Shown piece after piece: positions 16,486 through 24,240 of a stretch of DNA of 54,504 nt. Each line of letters opens with the position of its first letter. The stretch's first letter is position 1. The notes beneath the pieces are model-generated. The model was not told where the DNA came from and did not search any database. It saw nothing but the letters and a program-made list of their open reading frames with translations. Source of the stretch: Prorocentrum cordatum. Its lineage: Eukaryota. The position numbers were made by a program, and so were the translations under genes. Where the stretch lies: the NCBI GenBank assembly GCA_963575745.1, contig CAUYUJ010000232.1, positions 62,001 through 116,504 on the forward strand, written 5' to 3'.

Positions 16486-19400
16486 GAAGGTTATACTCAA
16501 AAGCGATGGAGAAGAGGCAATCACGGCGCTGGCCAACAGGATTAAAGCGTCGTGTGACCTCGACATGGGCGTTGAAGTCAGTCCTGTAGGCGACTCAAAG
16601 GCCAACGGTGAAATTGAGAGAGCAGTTAGAACGGTGCAAGGGCAAGTCAGGACATTAAAGAGCGCCTTGGATGCCAATTACAAGACCGAGTTCAGTGAAA
16701 GTCATACGATTATACCATGGCTGGTAAGCTATGCGTCTTCTCTGATTAACAAATTCACGATAGATACGGATGGAAAGACAGCCCATGAGAGATGTAGGGG
16801 GGGAAAGTTTAACAAGCAAATTCCTGAGTTCGGTGAATGTATCATGTGCTTAAAGACGCCTGCACACAAGGGCCGTGGAAAGCTTGAGATGAGATGGGAA
16901 AGTGGAGTGTTTTTGGGAATCAGCGAGAAGAGTCAGGAGCTCATCATTGGGACACCGAACGGAGCGATCAAGGCGCACGAGTTTAAACGAAAAGGAAGTG
17001 AAGCGGAAAGATGGAATAGCAACGAGATCACCGAGATGAAGGGGTTACCTTGGCAGCCTGACCCCAGCACGGCGGGAATGGAGTTACAGTCTAGAATTAT
17101 GGCACCCATGGACTTACCAGAGCAAGAGTTAACGGCGCCTGAGACGAAGCCGCTGATTGCGCGAGGAATAGCCGTAAAGAAGCACGAATCTCTAAAAATG
17201 GGACCGACGCCGGGATGTTACGGGTGTAAATGCCTAGTTAGAGGCGACAAAGAGCACAAACCACATAATGCTGATTGCAGGGCTCGCGTTATCGAGTGGT
17301 TAAAAAGACAAGAAAGTGCAAACGTGCAGGCAAGGTTAGCATCGGCCCAACTGAGACTCGAAGGTAAAAGCCGTGCGTCGGAAAGTCAAGATCAGGAGTC
17401 AGAAAGTCAAGCGAAGAGACTGAGACCCAACGTGCCACCTCCACCGGGCGCCAAAGTTGAGGATGCAAAAGATGAGTGGGTGATAAAAGGAAACAAAGTT
17501 ATATGTCAACACATACGACCAAGAAGAGAGTTAGCCTTTCCCACCAATGGTGGATGCCCTGTCGATTGGGATAAACTTAAACCCAGGAGATTTACCCATG
17601 CCATTCTAAACGACAGCGGTGAAATACGTGAGCATGAAGATGCTTGGTACGGCAAAGAGGGAGATGACCAAACATGGGCAATGGGAAACCCCTTTAACGG
17701 TTATTGGACCGGGTGGACCGAGTTCGAAATTGAAGATGAAGAAATGAAGGACCCACCAAGTGAACCGATCAAACGAAAAGCAGATAGTGACCACGATGAA
17801 GAATATCAACAGGCAACTCAGCATCGCCAACTTAACCCGGAACAAGATGAGGAAATGTCACAAGTAAACGATGTCAGACTGGGACTCAACATGATGGGAT
17901 TTGACTCTGAGCTGGATGAGTGGTTGATGAGCGGGGAGTTGGACGTCGTGCATCAGTTAAACGAAGTAAGGAGGGCCGCCAAGCTTCACGGCGCAAATCA
18001 ACATGAAACTCAGGCACACGCAACCGAGGCATATTCGCCAGTGAGGGTTACAGGCATGGCAGAGAAAATAGGATTGATACCTGGGTTAGCAATGGACTTA
18101 ACCACGTGCGACCAACATGGTAACCCATGGGACTTTAACGTGCCAGCCATGCGAGCGAAAGCAAAAAAGATAATCAAATCCAAATCAGCCCTGTTACTAG
18201 TGGTGAGTCCCATGTGCGCAGCCTTCAGCAGGCTCCAGACGTTTAACTTTAAAAGATTAGGCGCCGACCGAGTAAAACAAATGTTGGATTACGGGATCAA
18301 GCACTTAACATTTGCGATGGAGCTTTGCGAAATTCAACGGCGAAATGGGTTATACTTTCTATTTGAACATCCCGCGGGTGCGACCAGTTGGAGTACTTCA
18401 ACAGTGCAGCGGTTGCTCAGACACAAAGATGTTAAAGTTTACAATGGAGACTTATGCTGTTACGATTTGAAGCAGATAGTCAAAGGTGAGGAGATGTTCA
18501 TTAAAAAACCAACCAAGTTCATGACAAACAGCCCGGCCATAGGTCGTGAGTTAAGTTGGAGATGCAAAGGGCAACACCGACACATGGAGTTAACTGGTGG
18601 CGGAAGAACTCACCGATCAGAAGTTTATCCAGACAAATTGTGCCGAGCGATATTGAAGGGGCTTGTGGAACAAATGAAGATTGACGGACGTCAAGGAGGC
18701 ACATTTAAAGAGGAGGAAACGACAAACATGGAAGTTGATGAAGAGGGGCAAAGTGAAATTCAGATAAACGAAACTAACTGGGCATGTGACCATGCGGACC
18801 AAAACAGAGAGCACAAGCACCAGTTAACATGGACGAGAAAAGACTATGGAACCAAAAGATTGATGCTGCCAGGATCAAGTGGACCACAATGGAGCTCATG
18901 TATTAGGAGACTTACCGTTGACTTGGATACGGGGGAAGTTATCGAGGACAGGCCCGTGAACGAGATCACGGGCAGTGAAAGGAGGAGAATGTTCAAGAAG
19001 GGACCGGTTAACATTTCTACCACCTTTACGTATGAAGCTGTTGGCGAGACTGCCCCACACAAATGGAAGTGCAGTGCATGTGAACATGAGGGCTGGCTCA
19101 AGACGCCCAGTACCTGTGCAGCGTGTGAGAAGGTTGGCACAGTTAAACCTCTCCCCATGAATATGATTAACGTCGTTCACAAGGAAAATGGAGAGATAAC
19201 CCAAGCATGGGGCGATGTTACAGGAAACGAACTCAATCCTAAACTAACAGTGAAAGCGTGCCAGGAAGAAATGGAGCAATTTAGAGAGCACAGGGTTTAC
19301 GAGAAAGTGAAAGAAGAAGTGTGCTGGCAAGTCACGGGGAAAGCACCCATTGGAACCAGATGGATAGATATTAACAAAGGAGATGAGTTAAGCCCTGACC

Positions 19401-20212
19401 ACAGGTCAAGGCTAGCGGCCCAACAAGTTAAATACAATTCCAAAGAAAATAATATATTTGCGGCTACGCCTCCACTGGAAGCACAGAAACTACTCTTCTC
19501 AATGGCGGTTACCGAAGGAGTGGGATTCAAGAAAGGCGAGCGCGAGAAAGGATTAAAGCTGGTATTCGTTGACACTAAACGAGCTTACTTTTACGCTCCT
19601 GCAGAGAAAGACATATTTATCAGGCTACCGGGCGAGGATTACGAGCCGGGCATGTGTGGAAAGTTACTGAAGTCAATGTATGGAACAAGAGATGCGGCAA
19701 GCAACTGGGAAGACTGTTACATGGACTTTGCCATTGAAGTTGGGTTCAAGAGTGGAGTTGCGTCGCCGTGCGTGTTTAAGCACGAGACCCGAGCCCTATG
19801 GTTAACGGTTCATGGGGATGACTTTACGCTACTAGGGGGTGACCATGATCTCGATTGGTTTGAAAATACAATAAAGGAGGAGTTTGAGGTAAAAGTGAGA
19901 GGACGACTTGGACCGGGGCAGGAGGACATGAAGGCAATCAGGATTCTTAACAGGATTGTGGAGTGGACTGAGGAAGGATTGAGATATGAGGCTGATCAAA
20001 GGCATGCGGAGATAATTGTGAAAGAGCTTGAGCTTGAGGGAGTAAAAGTGAGGACTGAGGTACCAGGTGAGCGCATTCCAGTTGAAGAGGGAGATGAGGT
20101 AGAACTTTCGCCCAACATGACTAAGCGATATCAGGCATTAACGGCTAGAGCAAATTATATATTTAGCTCAAGACAGATCGGACATACAGTATTCAGTAAA
20201 GGAACTTGCTAG
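16463..20212 (+). CDS. pol: Pol: integrase core, DNMT-like domain, reverse transcriptase
   Basis: IN LKSDGE, SKANGEIERAV. RT APIGTRWID, RSRLAA, VFVDTKRAY, KSMYGTRDAASNW, TVHGDDF (copia type). A 4-bp ATAT duplication near 20160 breaks the frame before RNase H. Confidence 0.95.
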   Translation: MIGFTRYKKVILKSDGEEAITALANRIKASCDLDMGVEVSPVGDSKANGEIERAVRTVQGQVRTLKSALDANYKTEFSESHTIIPWLVSYASSLINKFTIDTDGKTAHERCRGGKFNKQIPEFGECIMCLKTPAHKGRGKLEMRWESGVFLGISEKSQELIIGTPNGAIKAHEFKRKGSEAERWNSNEITEMKGLPWQPDPSTAGMELQSRIMAPMDLPEQELTAPETKPLIARGIAVKKHESLKMGPTPGCYGCKCLVRGDKEHKPHNADCRARVIEWLKRQESANVQARLASAQLRLEGKSRASESQDQESESQAKRLRPNVPPPPGAKVEDAKDEWVIKGNKVICQHIRPRRELAFPTNGGCPVDWDKLKPRRFTHAILNDSGEIREHEDAWYGKEGDDQTWAMGNPFNGYWTGWTEFEIEDEEMKDPPSEPIKRKADSDHDEEYQQATQHRQLNPEQDEEMSQVNDVRLGLNMMGFDSELDEWLMSGELDVVHQLNEVRRAAKLHGANQHETQAHATEAYSPVRVTGMAEKIGLIPGLAMDLTTCDQHGNPWDFNVPAMRAKAKKIIKSKSALLLVVSPMCAAFSRLQTFNFKRLGADRVKQMLDYGIKHLTFAMELCEIQRRNGLYFLFEHPAGATSWSTSTVQRLLRHKDVKVYNGDLCCYDLKQIVKGEEMFIKKPTKFMTNSPAIGRELSWRCKGQHRHMELTGGGRTHRSEVYPDKLCRAILKGLVEQMKIDGRQGGTFKEEETTNMEVDEEGQSEIQINETNWACDHADQNREHKHQLTWTRKDYGTKRLMLPGSSGPQWSSCIRRLTVDLDTGEVIEDRPVNEITGSERRRMFKKGPVNISTTFTYEAVGETAPHKWKCSACEHEGWLKTPSTCAACEKVGTVKPLPMNMINVVHKENGEITQAWGDVTGNELNPKLTVKACQEEMEQFREHRVYEKVKEEVCWQVTGKAPIGTRWIDINKGDELSPDHRSRLAAQQVKYNSKENNIFAATPPLEAQKLLFSMAVTEGVGFKKGEREKGLKLVFVDTKRAYFYAPAEKDIFIRLPGEDYEPGMCGKLLKSMYGTRDAASNWEDCYMDFAIEVGFKSGVASPCVFKHETRALWLTVHGDDFTLLGGDHDLDWFENTIKEEFEVKVRGRLGPGQEDMKAIRILNRIVEWTEEGLRYEADQRHAEIIVKELELEGVKVRTEVPGERIPVEEGDEVELSPNMTKRYQALTARANYIFSSRQIGHTVFSKGTC
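18017..18670 (+). other. C5 cytosine methyltransferase-like domain within Pol
   Basis: EAYSPVRV (motif I position), VVSPMCAAFS (IV), FLFEHP (VI), KKPTKF (VIII), EVYPDKLCRAI (X), in C5-MTase order and spacing. Confidence 0.75.
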
Positions 20213-20216
20213 GACC

Positions 20217-20822
20217 ATGTCAAAGCCAACTATGGTTTCATGGAAAGGCCTAGTCAAGCTAGGAAAGTATTTGAAGTATCACAGCAGAAGCAGTTCTGTG
20301 TATCAGTATCAAGAACAGCCCCGAGAGTTGACGATTTGGACGGACACAGATTACGCAGGATGTAAACGAACTAGGAAGTCTACGAGTGGAGGAGTAGTGA
20401 TGTGGGGTAAACACCTCATAAAATCTTGGAGCACAACTCAAAGTGTAATTGCATTATCGTCAGGGGAAGCAGAATATTACGGGCTTGTGAAAGGAGGATC
20501 AGTCGGTCTAGGACTTCAGGCCGTGTTGAGGGATTTTAATTTGGAAGTTGAGATCACCTTGAAAAGTGATGCCACGGCTGCAATTGCAATTGCGAGCAGA
20601 CGAGGTTTAGGAAAAGTGAGACGCATTGAAGTATGTCAACTGTGGCTGCAGCAGAAGGTAAAGGAGGGAGTAATTCGAATTGTGAAAGTAGGCACACATG
20701 AGAACGCAGCAGATGCATTAACCAAGTATGTCAGTCGTGAGAGCATGAGCACACACCTACTAAACACAAACCAATGTACACTAACAGGTCGGCATAGCCT
20801 TGCGCCGGCCACCGAATGTTGA
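20217..20822 (+). CDS. Pol C-terminus: copia RNase H (frameshifted off RT)
   Basis: WTDTDYAGC..TRKSTSGG, LSSGEAEYYG, KSDATAA, ENAADALTK. Confidence 0.92.
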   Translation: MSKPTMVSWKGLVKLGKYLKYHSRSSSVYQYQEQPRELTIWTDTDYAGCKRTRKSTSGGVVMWGKHLIKSWSTTQSVIALSSGEAEYYGLVKGGSVGLGLQAVLRDFNLEVEITLKSDATAAIAIASRRGLGKVRRIEVCQLWLQQKVKEGVIRIVKVGTHENAADALTKYVSRESMSTHLLNTNQCTLTGRHSLAPATEC

Positions 20823-21022
20823 CATCCGCAGCTCATTTCTGTCAAGCAAGCAGTCTCGATTAAGGCTTCCTCCATCCTTTACCTCTTTCCCTCGAGCGTG
20901 AACGAAAGCGTGGCGGACAACCAAGTCAAGCGATCAACGGCGCTGCGGTCGACCAGAGCCCGCCTGGGGCAGGACCGGTTACACGTGAGAACCTCAATTG
21001 CCGTGTCGACGATATCGTCAAC

Positions 21023-21967
21023 GTGGCTCATGCGTATACCATGACCCTCACCAACATGGCCATTGACTTTCACGGGGCCTATGACAAGCACGTTGACGAG
21101 ATGCAGAGGGTTGCCGATGACATGGCGCGGAGGATCGTTGACTTAACACAGCAGAACACCGCGTTGGTTCACGCCAATGACGACGTCAACGAAAATCTCA
21201 AGAGGGCGCAGGACGAGGTTAACACCCTTGTGGCAACGGTTACAGAGTTGAACATCAAGAATCGCGACTCGGAGGTTAACACGGCGGAGAATGCGACCAA
21301 GTGCAGGCGCATTAACGAAAATATCGGTTGCCTCTTGAATACCGCCAGGCGCCTTACCGAGAACATCACGCCTCTGCAGGGCTTCGAAGGTAAACGTGAT
21401 GCGGCACTACGTATGCTAGTGGGAGTCACCGAGAGGCTTGAGGGTTTGCAGAGGTTCTTGGATGACCCGATCAACTCCTCGGTTACCATTATCCCGCAGG
21501 TGCCGCCGCCGTTGCCTGAGTTGCCCCCGACGGCAGCACCCGCCACGGCGCCGCCCGTTGCCGTCGCCGCGGCAGTCGGGCCCATGGCCACGGGCGCGCC
21601 CCCAGTGCAGCAGGTTAACGTGGCTCCATCAGGCAAAGCTCCCCCGACTCAGGACCTGGCCGACGCAACCACTAAAGCCGGGGGGAGTCGACGGTCCGTG
21701 TCGCCGAACAAGATCCGACCGTCAACGTTGAGCCGGCAGGGCGGTGAAGAGCCACAGCCTGTTTACAAGCGGGCGCCGAAGGCCATGCATGAGCGTGAAC
21801 GGGAGCTGGAAGAATTGATGCAGATAGGCATGAAGATGGACGAGGATCGAACGGTTGGTGGTCAACGTGATGAGGTACCAAAGGATCCTGCCCCCGCCGT
21901 AAACGTGAGGCCGGCCAAGCCGCCCCCTTCCGGGGCTCGGCGAGTCCAGAGCGGCAAGCAGCGTTAG
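21023..21967 (+). CDS. Extra ORF part 1: coiled-coil plus Pro/Ala-rich protein (first ATG 21041)
   Basis: 314-aa ORF between RNase H and the 3' LTR, with a heptad-like helical N-half and GC3-rich codons; appears to continue into 21972 via a +1 shift near 21929. Confidence 0.7.
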   Translation: MAHAYTMTLTNMAIDFHGAYDKHVDEMQRVADDMARRIVDLTQQNTALVHANDDVNENLKRAQDEVNTLVATVTELNIKNRDSEVNTAENATKCRRINENIGCLLNTARRLTENITPLQGFEGKRDAALRMLVGVTERLEGLQRFLDDPINSSVTIIPQVPPPLPELPPTAAPATAPPVAVAAAVGPMATGAPPVQQVNVAPSGKAPPTQDLADATTKAGGSRRSVSPNKIRPSTLSRQGGEEPQPVYKRAPKAMHERERELEELMQIGMKMDEDRTVGGQRDEVPKDPAPAVNVRPAKPPPSGARRVQSGKQR

Positions 21968-21971
21968 CGGC

Positions 21972-23174
21972 ATGAAGCCCCCGCCTCCAGAGCCCAAGAG
22001 GTTACCGGTCCAGCACGTCCCGCCACCGCAGCCTCAAGTCGTTAACCGCGCGAATGATCAGCTTGCGGGATACTCCAGGACCGTCGCCAAGGCGGTGTAC
22101 CGCCCGCTGTACCACGTCAACGGTCGCATGCCCATGCTGAACGACAGGAGCGACGACTACGACGTTAACTATCGGGCGGAACCTGACCCCAGGGAAGTGG
22201 TAGCCTTAACGATGAAGACACGTGACAACTGGCGCAGGTTTGAGGGTAACTTCGTCGGGCACGTGGCGACGGCAGGGTTAAGGACCCCTGGCGGCAGGTC
22301 TATTCAGGGCAACACAGGGCGGGAGCTTAACGATTGCGATGACGTGTTCGTTGACATCTTTGGCCAACATGCTTACGGTTTCATCGGCTATGCCGTGTTG
22401 AAAGGTCCGAGCAGCTGGAGATCTCAATTAACGGAGAAAGAGTTGACCAAGCATGATGAATGGGTTGACGCGGTTGGGCACGTACAGTCCCTATTTGACG
22501 ATGAGTACGTGCCACCACTCCACGTTGACGAGCTTCACCCATCGTGGTTTGAGCTCCACAGTTGCCCGGACACGCAGGTGTACGTCAACAAGGTGCCGGA
22601 GATGAACGAGAAGCAGCTTAATGGTCTCCTCTTAACGTGGGCAGGAATGCTGCCCCACGGCAACCCCACCGTGATCTCCGTTAAGCACCTGGTGGAGGAC
22701 GCCCGTGGGCCGCACGGTTGCATCTCGACTGGAGTTACCGTGATTCGCTTTGCGACGCCCGATCTCGCCAAGCTTTACTGCCGTTACATGAACGGGCTCC
22801 AGGTGCATTACCGTAACTACTTCATCGACGACCTCGAGGTCAGGAGCACCGAGGAGTTAAAGGGCAGTATCAACAAGCCTCCAGTCTACTGGCACCAGAC
22901 CATCTTGGACGTTGCCCTTAACGATCAGGGATCCATGAGGGCACTTTACCGTGATAATTGGCCTGCCGATCATGTCACCGAGCGTAAAAGCGATCACCGT
23001 GAGAAGCTTTGCTGGTTTGGCTGGTTACCGTGCGACGACTTCCCCAACTGGCTTACCGATCCGGCCTGGACTGTGAACCCGTTTACCGGCGCTGCGGTCG
23101 AAGAGCACCTCCGTAACAATCCAGGCGGTGGGCCTCTACTGGAGGGCCATCGGCACCTGCCACAACATCGTTGA
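21972..23174 (+). CDS. Extra ORF part 2: unknown protein with RRM-like domain (22572-22845)
   Basis: 400-aa complex ORF: QVYVNKVP (RNP2-like), NEKQLNGLL, VISVKHL, STGVTVIRF (RNP1-like), ATPDLAKLYCRYMNGLQV. Confidence 0.7.
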   Translation: MKPPPPEPKRLPVQHVPPPQPQVVNRANDQLAGYSRTVAKAVYRPLYHVNGRMPMLNDRSDDYDVNYRAEPDPREVVALTMKTRDNWRRFEGNFVGHVATAGLRTPGGRSIQGNTGRELNDCDDVFVDIFGQHAYGFIGYAVLKGPSSWRSQLTEKELTKHDEWVDAVGHVQSLFDDEYVPPLHVDELHPSWFELHSCPDTQVYVNKVPEMNEKQLNGLLLTWAGMLPHGNPTVISVKHLVEDARGPHGCISTGVTVIRFATPDLAKLYCRYMNGLQVHYRNYFIDDLEVRSTEELKGSINKPPVYWHQTILDVALNDQGSMRALYRDNWPADHVTERKSDHREKLCWFGWLPCDDFPNWLTDPAWTVNPFTGAAVEEHLRNNPGGGPLLEGHRHLPQHR

Positions 23175-23376
23175 CGGCTCCATTAAGAGCTACGATGAGG
23201 GGTGCTGGCTTGACGACGATGAGCGCATTAACGCGTACCTGGACACCGACTACTACAGCCCGATGCAGGCCCTTAACAGGGTGTCGTCCTACACCGCAGC
23301 CAGCGTGGGACATCGCGGGTTACCGAGGTCGAGGGGTTCACGAGCCCCGTCGGCGAGGCGCCCGCGCCGTTCGTGA
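23128..23376 (+). pseudogene. Extra ORF part 3: probable true C-terminus after a +1 shift near 23118
   Basis: The GC3-rich codon pattern moves to this frame (GLYWRAIGTCHNIVDG...); ends in an Arg/Ser-rich tail. Confidence 0.55.
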
Positions 23377-23774
23377 AAGACGGCAGGCAGTCAGCATGCT
23401 GCAGTTTACGCTCTTCCTCATCTCCCCTCTTAACTTGGCTTAACGATCGAGTGGCGGTAGCTTGTTGAGCTGAGTTTGTTTGCGTGCGCATCTCTTGTTG
23501 TTACCGCAGGTATTGGCGAATAAAAAGCGAAAGCAATCACAATCATCCAAATGCTAACCTGCTGTGTAAACTTTAGATGCTTCGTTTGAACTTGTGACAG
23601 TAAAAGCGTTTACTCGAGCTCAGGTTCCATGTGTGAGAAACTTGGTGCTCGTAAGCGCAGTCACGAGACATTTCGAATTCAGCAATATGATGATTTGCGT
23701 GCAACGTTTTGCATAGTTTAACCTGTTTTTGCGTTTGTAGACACCTCCCCGTCAGCCTATGCGGACTAGCGTCC

Positions 23775-23782
23775 GAGGGGGG
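23775..23782 (+). promoter_or_regulatory. Polypurine tract
   Basis: GAGGGGGG abutting the 3' LTR. Confidence 0.85.
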
Positions 23783-23957
23783 TGTTAACATGTAAGCGTT
23801 CAGGTGACTGGGGAGGGAAGGTGACCCTGTTACCTTTGGCTCAAGTGTTTAACGGCTGAAGCCACCGAGACTCGCTTCGCCGTGCGGGAGTAAAAAGGTG
23901 ACCGATCGTCATCGCTGTCACTGGGCTCCCGTGCAGAACCCTCCTCGGGGTTTTGCA
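23783..23957 (+). repeat. 3' LTR
   Basis: Second copy of the 175-bp repeat, preceded by a purine tract. Confidence 0.97.
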
Positions 23958-24240
23958 GGAGAAGGAGGAGGAGGAGGAGGAGGAGGAGGAGGAGGAGAGG
24001 AGGAGAGGAGAGGAGGGAGGAGGAGGAGAGGGGAGGAGGAGGAGGGAGGAGGAGGAGGAAGGAGGAGGCGGAGGAGGAGGAGGAGGAGGGAGGAGGAGGA
24101 GGAGGAGGAGGAGGAGGAGGAGGAGGACGAGGACGAGGAGGACGAGGACGAGGAGGACGAGGACGAGGAGGTCGAGTAGGAGGAGGAGAGATGATCGGGC
24201 AGGGGAGGGATCAGACGGGAGAGTGGAGATGAGAGAGAGA

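Follow-up and report, generated by a model that had tools for sequence, protein, structure and literature searches.

A candidate RRM-type accessory protein encoded downstream of pol in a Ty1/copia-type retrotransposon lineage of marine plankton

Introduction

Does a Ty1/copia-type retrotransposon carry, beyond gag and pol, a third gene of its own, and if so, what might its product do for the element? The question is raised by a stretch of 54,504 nt from Prorocentrum cordatum (contig CAUYUJ010000232.1 of assembly GCA_963575745.1, positions 62,001 to 116,504 of the forward strand). We refer to this whole stretch as the window, and all coordinates are counted from its first letter. Within it, positions 13189-23957 are a young Ty1/copia-type long terminal repeat (LTR) retrotransposon. 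An earlier reading of the letters alone (the sequence-only reading) had proposed that this element has an additional gene between pol and the 3' LTR. We call this gene ORF3, for the third open reading frame (ORF) of the element.

Our preferred reading, which we hold with intermediate confidence, is that a marine-plankton Ty1/copia lineage has in ORF3 a true third gene of long residence, that this gene has its own start and encodes an accessory protein of RNA recognition motif (RRM) and coiled-coil type acting on the element's RNA, and that the window holds a recent, broken copy. The sequence-only reading had spoken of an element-encoded, oligomeric RNA-binding accessory protein. The conserved, element-encoded gene and the RRM-type fold of its product stand, whereas we infer oligomerisation, RNA binding and the exact role of the protein.

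Results

Intact relatives and a diverged element with the same gene

Sense coding sequence is present between the end of RNase H, with the pol stop at 20820-20822, and the polypurine tract (PPT) and 3' LTR. It lies in three pieces, as had been described, which are covered by the open frames 20864-21967, 21909-23174 and 23077-23376. Related proteins run through the breaks between these pieces: P0001 (444 aa, 64% identical) and P0002 (273 aa, 78%) are continuous across the second break, and P0003 (841 aa), P0004 (863 aa) and P0005 (854 aa) span everything, with 59-60% identity over 94-98% of the middle piece. Together with P0010 (876 aa), the intact relatives measure 841-876 aa, and the protein of ~777 aa that had been expected is therefore too short.

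A profile of the family, compared with 1.84 billion representative proteins, matches 95 of them at E<=1e-3, 50 at E<=1e-10 and 13 at E<=1e-30; the majority of the 95 are fragments on short contigs. No relative was returned by a scan of JGI metagenomes with the family alignment, and none was found among IMG/VR viral contigs and phage records. In a search of the ESM Atlas all scores were below 0.9, with RRM-family clusters among the leads only.

The cluster of P0010 consists of 11 distinct sequences, all of 876 aa and most of them on contigs of ~10.4-11.3 kb. One of these contigs, of 10523 nt (L001), holds an intact element, which has the same LTR start (TGTTAA...), the same primer-binding site (PBS) and, in the position equivalent to that in the window, a PPT reading GAGAGGGGG. 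Its ORF1 encodes 857 aa and its ORF2, in the -1 frame, 1614 aa; ORF3 follows directly after pol as an open frame of 885 aa. Between the window and L001, Pol is 60% identical over 1268 columns and the C-terminal 450 aa of ORF3 are 31% identical; the N-terminal parts of ORF3 do not align. Because ORF3 is present after pol in an element whose Pol is only 60% identical, we consider the gene old and fixed in its position. An ordinary host gene captured in one copy only does not describe it, as L001 has the gene at the same place and the oligonucleotide bias of the element extends to it (see below).

The window copy is broken where its siblings are open

A search of public runs for the element gave ten runs from seven studies, none of them on record as RNA. 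From four runs (X1, X2, X3 and X5, from four studies), sibling contigs were placed on 13000-24100 at a likeness of at least 85%. There were 759, 2530, 1009 and 1074 such contigs, respectively, and they covered 30 of 30 bins of this region in each run. Since every bin is covered in every run, the element is a multi-copy family in those samples. The summed contig cover of ORF3, which is a cover and not a copy number, is comparable to that of gag-pol in all four runs.

The frame breaks of the window are missing from most or part of these sibling contigs. In pol, the window has one extra base at 16455 relative to most siblings, and four extra bases at 20156 relative to part of them. In ORF3, it is four bases shorter at 20929/20930 than the siblings in X1, X2 and X5, but not in X3. 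It also has one extra base at 21928 in comparison with siblings in four of four runs (depth lacking the base out of total depth: 8.67 of 12.6 in X1, 83.2 of 83.2 in X2, 24.6 of 44.1 in X3 and 16 of 16 in X5). At 23137, finally, ~23 nt are missing relative both to the siblings and to five intact or partial protein relatives, and the loose ends of sibling contigs at this point, found in all four runs, continue into codons that are present in the protein relatives.

These comparisons change the repair that had been suggested for ORF3, namely the removal of one base near 21929 and one near 23118. The first break is borne out, at 21928. The second is not a single base but the ~23-nt gap at 23137, and the 4-nt difference at 20929/20930 had been missed. 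The ATG at 21041 had been taken as the start. However, all sibling contigs that cover this position (4, 2, 2 and 2 in X1, X2, X3 and X5) read another letter there, so this ATG is private to the window copy, and the intact relatives start ~44 codons upstream. In the alignment of relatives, the N-terminus of the family (MGD...ING) falls on 20910, where the window reads GTG.

Other contigs bridge the borders of the gene: one leads from the pol stop into ORF3 (X5 record 31, 20806-21294), and in X3 the end of ORF3 continues into the 3' untranslated region (UTR; record 22) and the UTR into the LTR (records 23 and 24). We conclude that the family keeps the ORF3 frame open at the places that are broken in the window copy, and that the window copy inserted recently and either was damaged before or decayed quickly.

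One contig path in X2, at a depth of 40 as against several hundred nearby, joins 20845 to 13359. It consists of the sequence after the pol stop, seven other letters, the last bases of the LTR and then the PBS. It could represent an ORF3-less variant, a tandem arrangement or an artefact of the assembly graph.

An RRM-type core

An RRM fold had been expected at 22572-22845, and structure prediction places one there. The AlphaFold2 model of P0001, built from an 84-sequence alignment, has a mean predicted local distance difference test score (pLDDT) of 77.7 and a predicted template modelling score (pTM) of 0.82. Strands and helices in the order of an RRM are found at model residues 170-251, with pLDDT blocks of ~77-95 across them. 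Comparison of the model with the PDB by Foldseek gave nothing at E<=1e-3. Each of the rows that we examined is an RRM or an RRM-bearing chain (best E 1.5e-2; target-normalised template modelling scores up to 0.72). With VIA-align, 50 of the 50 listed rows are RRM proteins, at modest scores, and in BFVD only weak rows for giant-virus RRMs appear, with E of at least 0.13.

In sequence comparison, the window piece alone finds the RRMs of hnRNP M at E 0.13 only. With a profile of 17 family sequences, 15 of the 16 PDB matches at E<=10 are RRM proteins, hnRNP M being the best at E 0.0048; CELF1, HuR, Sxl, PABP and Hsh49/SF3B4 are among the others. The alignments stay in register over the whole range between beta2 and beta4, with RNP1 and alpha2 inside it. 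Canonical RNP1 and RNP2 motifs have a consensus of aromatic residues. In ORF3, RNP2 is VYVNKV, with the aromatic residue kept. The window lineage has TGVTVIRF as RNP1; at position 5 of this motif, Phe is found in some distant members. We conclude that the core fold, as modelled, is of RRM type, though non-canonical, and that RNA binding is likely.

Layout of the remainder of the protein

The order that had been proposed for the protein, with a heptad-rich N-terminus, a Pro/Ala linker, a globular part, the RRM-like segment (~22566-22850) and a basic Arg/Ser tail, holds throughout. In the intact protein, ~200 aa belong to the heptad-rich N-terminus and ~190 aa to the linker, which is Pro-rich and variable; these are followed by a compact C-terminal unit of ~445 aa and a short Arg/Ser tail. 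We counted segments of 28 residues as heptad-positive if at least 75% of their a and d positions are hydrophobic. The N-terminus encoded in the window has 71 such segments against a mean of 17 in shuffled sequences, and 0 of 300 shuffles reach 71. For P0003, P0072 and P0010, the observed count is reached by 0, 3 and 20 of 300 shuffles, respectively, the last being a weaker signal. Pfam and PDB searches with the N-terminus gave only weak, sub-threshold matches of coiled-coil type. The full-length family profile likewise gave weak coiled-coil-type rows in the PDB, the best being a SNAP25 fusion at E 0.013, and these we read as compositional. A complex prediction with three copies of the N-terminal 200 aa had a score of 0.01, was run without controls and weighs neither way.

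The linker is 21% Pro and 13% Ala in P0003 (residues 201-395). Beyond it, the flanks of the RRM are predicted to pack with it into one unit. No known fold was assigned to the N-flank in a structure comparison that barely covered this part. The tail, of ~20-40 aa, has few RS dipeptides; the last 41 aa of P0003 have a net charge of +6, and the tails of P0010, P0011 and P0043 are Arg/Ser-rich too.

The absence of a signal peptide or transmembrane helix, and hence of an env-type character, had been claimed for ORF3 in the window and extends to the family. In eight family proteins, the maximum Kyte-Doolittle hydropathy over 19 residues is 0.77-1.56, short of a membrane helix, and the means of the N-terminal 20 residues range from -0.81 to 0.22. 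In 7 of the 8, the maximum lies inside the RRM; P0072 stops short of the RRM and has its maximum in the N-terminal region.

Constraint

Siblings lacking the region would have spoken against a resident gene. Instead, they carry ORF3 with its frame open where that of the window is broken, and intact ORFs occur in four clusters at 90% identity, in which 2 of 3, 3 of 5, 4 of 8 and 11 of 11 members are full-length; the contigs of the remaining members measure 515-2960 nt. Within the P0005 cluster, the four members of 854 aa have 89 variable sites among them, with no stop and no change in length. The RRM, C-flank and tail together have 7 variable sites out of 279, versus 82 out of 575 elsewhere (Table 1 gives the regions separately). 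Over the full-length copies, variation in these three parts is lower than in the rest by a factor of 4-5. To judge from these substitutions, constraint acts mainly on the RRM, C-flank and tail. Length differences between P0003, P0004 and P0005 are in frame and located in the Pro-rich linker. In the P0010 cluster (the ORF3 of L001), 11 of 18 variable sites are in the N-terminal heptad region, residues 51-280.

Oligonucleotide bias of the element

The GTTA(A)C bias that had been noted for ORF3 is found across the element. TTAAC is enriched 5.4-fold in gag-pol and 10.8-fold in ORF3, and GTTAC outnumbers its complement by 20 to 2 in gag-pol, with hardly any in the host flanks. The lineages differ in preference, which is for GTTAA/GTTAC in the window and for GTCAA/GTCAC in L001. 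When GT[CT]A[AC] is compared with shuffles of synonymous codons, it is in excess in all three ORFs of L001 (0 of 200 shuffles in each case), with 148 occurrences on the plus strand and 39 on the minus strand. The window has an excess in gag (0 of 200), pol (0 of 200) and the first piece of ORF3 (1 of 200), and none in the second piece of ORF3 (21 of 200), protease or RNase H. The region taken for the bias is 13364-23782 in the window and 190-10399 in L001. Because ORF3 has the element-wide bias, we consider its residence in the element to be long.

The spacer between pol and ORF3

In both the window and L001, pol ends with APATEC and a stop, and a spacer of ~88 nt follows. A core of CTCCATCC within a pyrimidine-rich run, followed by AG, is common to the two spacers. 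The tract and AG are 13-15 nt upstream of the aligned start, which is the GTG in the window and an ATG in L001 (P0010 residue 51). Gene calls for P0003, P0004 and P0005 begin at the Met that is aligned to 20910. By its sequence, the tract with AG looks like a 3' splice site, and we prefer a spliced subgenomic mRNA, of the kind that serves retroviral env and certain plant elements (PMC7264820), as the putative route by which ORF3 is expressed. In the lineage of the window, ORF3 is in frame with pol behind one TGA, and in L001 it is in the +1 frame; this difference between lineages argues against a conserved recoding mechanism. A 5' splice donor was sought in the leader that separates the gag ATG from the PBS. 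This leader has ~8 nt in the window and more in L001. GGTT occurs in both, which we regard as too little, and this candidate was dropped.

A methyltransferase-like domain and a further segment in Pol

Between integrase and reverse transcriptase (RT), Pol has a stretch of ~700 aa that shows conservation with L001 and four other RVT_2 polyproteins. Searches of Pfam and the PDB with the sequence of this insert gave no match. In a model of moderate quality, made from six sequences, the core of the insert folds like a C5 cytosine methyltransferase: Foldseek returned 13 matches at E<=1e-3, all of them DNA methyltransferases (DNMTs). The motifs of C5-methyltransferases include the Pro-Cys of motif IV, the Glu of motif VI and motif I, which binds S-adenosylmethionine. 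In the insert, GSP(P/M)C.AF(S/C) and (F/H)EHP vary hardly or not at all among the six sequences; no motif I of FxGxG type was seen by eye. Based on this model, the insert is assigned the fold of a DNMT catalytic domain. Between the DNMT-like part and the RT there is also a CxxC...CxxC segment, KWKCSACEHEGWLKTPSTCAACEKVG (~19064-19145), which is conserved in L001, whereas the more distant polyproteins P0125-P0128 lack it. In sequence it looks like a zinc ribbon.

Retrotransposons with a DNMT are known, e.g., the SymbioLINE-Dnmt, SymbioDIRS-Dnmt3 and KnitGypsy-Dnmt3 elements, which are long interspersed nuclear element (LINE), DIRS and Gypsy elements. In the sections available to us, a 2018 paper states that the Copia elements of Symbiodinium are without a DNMT domain (PMC5890265), and 'LTR Copia and DIRS' elements with DNMT3 are referred to in a paper of 2025 (PMC12344493). 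The likeness to our element is that a retroelement carries an extra, host-type domain. The difference is that those elements are LINE, DIRS and Gypsy, and that the available sections of both papers mention no RRM ORF in them. We considered whether the SPMC...FEHP motif identifies the insert with the DNMT-bearing elements of Symbiodinium, and rejected this, as those are described as LINE and DIRS elements, not Copia (PMC5890265, in the same sections).

The element and its surroundings

The assignment to Ty1/copia is based on the TG...CA LTRs, the PBS, the PPT and the order protease-integrase-RT-RNase H with an RT of the RVT_2 family; LTR, PBS and PPT are likewise found in L001. Pfam recognises RVT_2 at E 7.5e-12 in the pol of the window and at 5.9e-17 in L001, and the zinc-finger and core motifs of integrase are upstream of it. 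The PBS is presumably similar to the 3' end of initiator tRNA-Met. In ORF1, the ORFs 13370-14833 and 14834-15994 have a single shared frame, and a CCHC knuckle is found at their junction (Pfam, E 0.034; zf-CCHC in ORF1 of L001 at E 1.7e-9). The stop between them separates the gag part from the protease part, and ORF1 of L001 is uninterrupted over its 857 aa; this stop is probably another private defect of the window copy. Table 1 lists the features of the element.

Table 1. Features of the retrotransposon and of ORF3 in the window; the last column gives variable sites per sites in the P0005 cluster
Feature	Positions	Strand	Remarks	Variable sites
5' LTR	13189..13363	+	175 bp, TG...CA; direct repeat of 23783-23957 with 1 mismatch in 175	
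PBS, TGGTAGCGGAGCG	13364..13376	+	directly 3' of the 5' LTR; identical in L001	
gag-protease ORF1	13385..15994	+	in-frame stop 14831-14833 in the window copy	
pol (integrase, DNMT-like insert, RVT_2 RT, RNase H)	15949..20822	+	frame breaks 16455 and 20156 in the window copy	
DNMT-like domain inside pol	18000..18710 (approximate)	+		
pol-ORF3 spacer	20823..20909	+	pyrimidine tract and AG at 20866-20896	
ORF3, decayed copy	20910..23376	+	GTG at the start position; breaks 20929/30, 21928 and 23137; stop 23374-23376	
ORF3 heptad-rich (coiled-coil type) region	20975..21466	+	heptad count versus shuffles	26/200
ORF3 Pro/Ala-rich linker	21467..22049	+	contains the 21928 break; length varies in frame among relatives	34/210
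ORF3 N-flank of the C-terminal globular unit	22050..22565	+	part of one compact model, pTM 0.82	22/165
ORF3 RRM-type domain	22566..22850	+	beta-alpha-beta-beta-alpha-beta, model residues 170-251	3/105
ORF3 C-flank, Trp/Cys-rich	22851..23310	+	holds the 23137 gap; pLDDT 88-95, model residues ~330-410	4/135
ORF3 Arg/Ser-rich basic tail	23311..23373	+	composition, charge, constraint	0/39
PPT, GAGGGGGG	23775..23782	+	immediately 5' of the 3' LTR	
3' LTR	23783..23957	+	direct repeat partner of the 5' LTR	

The 3' UTRs of the window and L001 have no conserved block except the PPT and the start of the LTR. No Rfam family matches anywhere in 13000-24100, neither blastn nor tblastn finds a second copy of the element within the window, no tRNA genes were found in the window, and Pfam recognises no family in 12 long ORFs of the flanks. 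The element is inserted in a (GGA)n microsatellite, and the surrounding host DNA is GC-rich (~0.63). This (GGA)n setting is common to the window copy (13120-13188 and 23958-24210) and L001 (1-39), and the five bases on each side of the element in the window are GGAGG and GGAGA. With two of two copies in such repeats, the element may have a preference for GGA-repeat targets. To the left of the element (7001-9000 and 10400-13200), the GC content is low, at 0.36-0.44, with a GC skew of 0.43-0.84 in favor of G over C; these tracts are trinucleotide repeats such as (TAG)n, and the host region is very microsatellite-rich.

Discussion

Possible roles of ORF3

On our preferred reading, the ORF3 protein would self-associate through its N-terminus, bind RNA through the RRM unit and the basic tail, and act on the element's own transcript, either in ribonucleoprotein assembly and chaperoning or in the control of export or splicing. 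Its layout would then be like that of L1 ORF1p for LINEs, and its logic like that of Rev-type factors for complex retroviruses. Translation would begin at the gene's own start; the message would probably be a subgenomic mRNA, spliced at the pyrimidine tract and AG that lie 13-15 nt before this start.

Several observations weigh against this reading. Pfam RRM_1 matches only 1 of the 84 family members, below threshold (E 0.023), and no piece of the window. RNP1 positions 3 and 5 are Val, Thr or Ala in the window lineage, with aromatic residues only in some distant members, and the flanks of the RRM, which have no assigned fold in a comparison that barely covered them, might be where the real activity resides. 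Divergence is about twice as rapid in ORF3 as in pol, which also fits a protein that interacts with the host. The GC content at third codon positions (GC3) is 0.69-0.80 in ORF3 versus 0.49 in pol of the window, and 0.71 versus 0.52 in L001. Lastly, the putative splice acceptor has been read from two sequences. Many of these points would be accommodated if the RRM were a protein-interaction module and ORF3 worked on host factors, e.g., as a silencing suppressor or a pathway hijacker, rather than on the element's RNA. The non-canonical RNP1, the compactness of the unit in which conserved flanks wrap the RRM (pTM 0.82), the rapid divergence (31% versus 60% identity) and a GC3 nearer to that of the GC-rich host flanks than pol's all favor such a role, and the N-terminal variability of the P0010 cluster is a pattern that can accompany host-element conflict. 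However, the aromatic residue of RNP2 and the Arg/Lys-Phe/Tyr pair of RNP1 are largely kept, the conserved Arg/Ser-rich tail is typical of RNA-binding proteins, and no partner or interaction motif has been identified. We regard an action on host factors as unlikely, though as a serious contender.

The other explanations concern how the gene is expressed, or whether it serves the element in another way or at all. ORF3 might be a C-terminal extension of Pol, made by readthrough of the pol TGA or by a +1 shift. The arrangement would permit this, in that pol and ORF3 share a frame in the window lineage, separated by one TGA and an open spacer of 87 nt (ORF 20823-21044), the ORF3 frame of L001 is open for 89 nt back into pol, and the peptide after the stop begins with HPQ in both. 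We nevertheless consider an extension very unlikely, given the change of frame relation from 0 to +1 between lineages, the three gene calls that start at the Met aligned to 20910, and a spacer that is conserved as nucleotides (the pyrimidine tract and AG) and, as protein, only in HPQ. Less likely still, ORF3 might have been transduced from the host and travel as a passenger without a role for the element. Its GC3 above that of gag-pol, the lack of a match to any known retroelement family and the chance that the distant relatives P0011, P0043 and P0089 are host genes would be explained in this way. A mere passenger is difficult to reconcile with a place kept in elements whose pol is only 60% identical, with many copies that have intact ORFs and domain-specific constraint, with a strand-specific, element-wide bias that includes ORF3 and not the host flanks, or with a contig cover (again, not a copy number) comparable to gag-pol in four runs. 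Finally, ORF3 has the position and sense of env-like ORFs between pol and the 3' LTR, as presented in the available part of a review (PMC7264820), and it has heptad repeats. A function in cell-to-cell or extracellular transfer, as has been proposed for ORFs of Sirevirus/Athila type, is nevertheless scarcely credible here: the N-terminus is not hydrophobic, no 19-residue stretch in the eight proteins has the hydropathy of a membrane helix (the maximum of 1.56 lies inside the RRM), and the core fold is that of an RRM.

Returning to an accessory protein that acts on the element's RNA, a more specific form of this idea is speculative, and we consider it quite unlikely to hold in full. In this form, a self-associating RRM protein would mark the genomic RNA of the element via GUYAM (GUUAA/GUUAC in the window, GUCAA/GUCAC in L001), with protein and motif co-evolving, as an independent counterpart of LINE ORF1p or Rev; in combination with the DNMT-like domain of Pol, it would make the element a 'complex' copia. 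If this is true, the element family has its own RNA-level and DNA-level regulators.

Comparison with known systems

Env-like sense ORFs that follow pol and precede the 3' LTR, as in Sirevirus, Athila, Bagy2 and other elements, are present in most copies of a family, and some are expressed from a spliced message, according to the available part of the review (PMC7264820). ORF3 is like them in position, orientation and presence in most copies of its family. However, env-like ORFs are defined by features of membrane proteins, and ORF3 is without these, having an RRM core instead. In the same part of that review, which covers additional ORFs, the terms 'rna binding' and 'coiled' occur 0 times (PMC7264820). 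More widely, in those parts of the literature that were available, we found no LTR retrotransposon for which an additional ORF with an RRM is described; the reports of RRMs there all concern ORF1 proteins of non-LTR elements.

With LINE-1 ORF1p, ORF3 has in common that it is element-encoded and without a membrane anchor, and that a region of coiled-coil type at the N-terminus is followed by an RRM without the full RNP consensus. It differs in its place, as it comes third and last in an LTR element that already has a Gag with a CCHC knuckle, rather than being the first ORF of a LINE. It also has a Pro-rich linker of 190 aa and large flanks on both sides of its RRM, for a size of ~850 aa. L1 ORF1p has ~340 aa. 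No L1 ORF1 family of Pfam was found for the window pieces, and none is among the 25 of 34 families that were listed for the 84 members. ORF3 is not a member of the L1 ORF1p family. L1ORF1p trimerises through its coiled coil, and its N-terminal portion evolves rapidly, as the accessible part of one paper states (PMC5940361). The N-terminal part of ORF3 also varies faster than its RRM part.

SR-type splicing factors and Rev each combine an RNA-binding module with an Arg-rich segment, and Rev also oligomerises. ORF3 resembles SR proteins in that an RRM is followed by a short, basic, Arg/Ser-rich tail, and Rev in its region of self-association type and the location of its gene 3' of pol. In both cases this is an analogy only: the tail of ORF3 is short and has few RS dipeptides, and there is no relation in sequence.

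Significance

Additional ORFs are known in LTR elements, with functions that are mostly obscure, and those in sense orientation are usually filed as env-like. ORF3, as we read it, is a conserved and clearly non-env third gene with an RNA-binding-type fold, in an element family that is abundant in marine plankton. It offers a testable case of an LTR element that encodes its own post-transcriptional factor, which would be a convergence with LINE ORF1p. Work on it can build on natural copies that are intact, and on the candidate RNA motif and splice acceptor proposed above. If our reading is right, copia elements of protists can rival complex retroviruses in gene richness.

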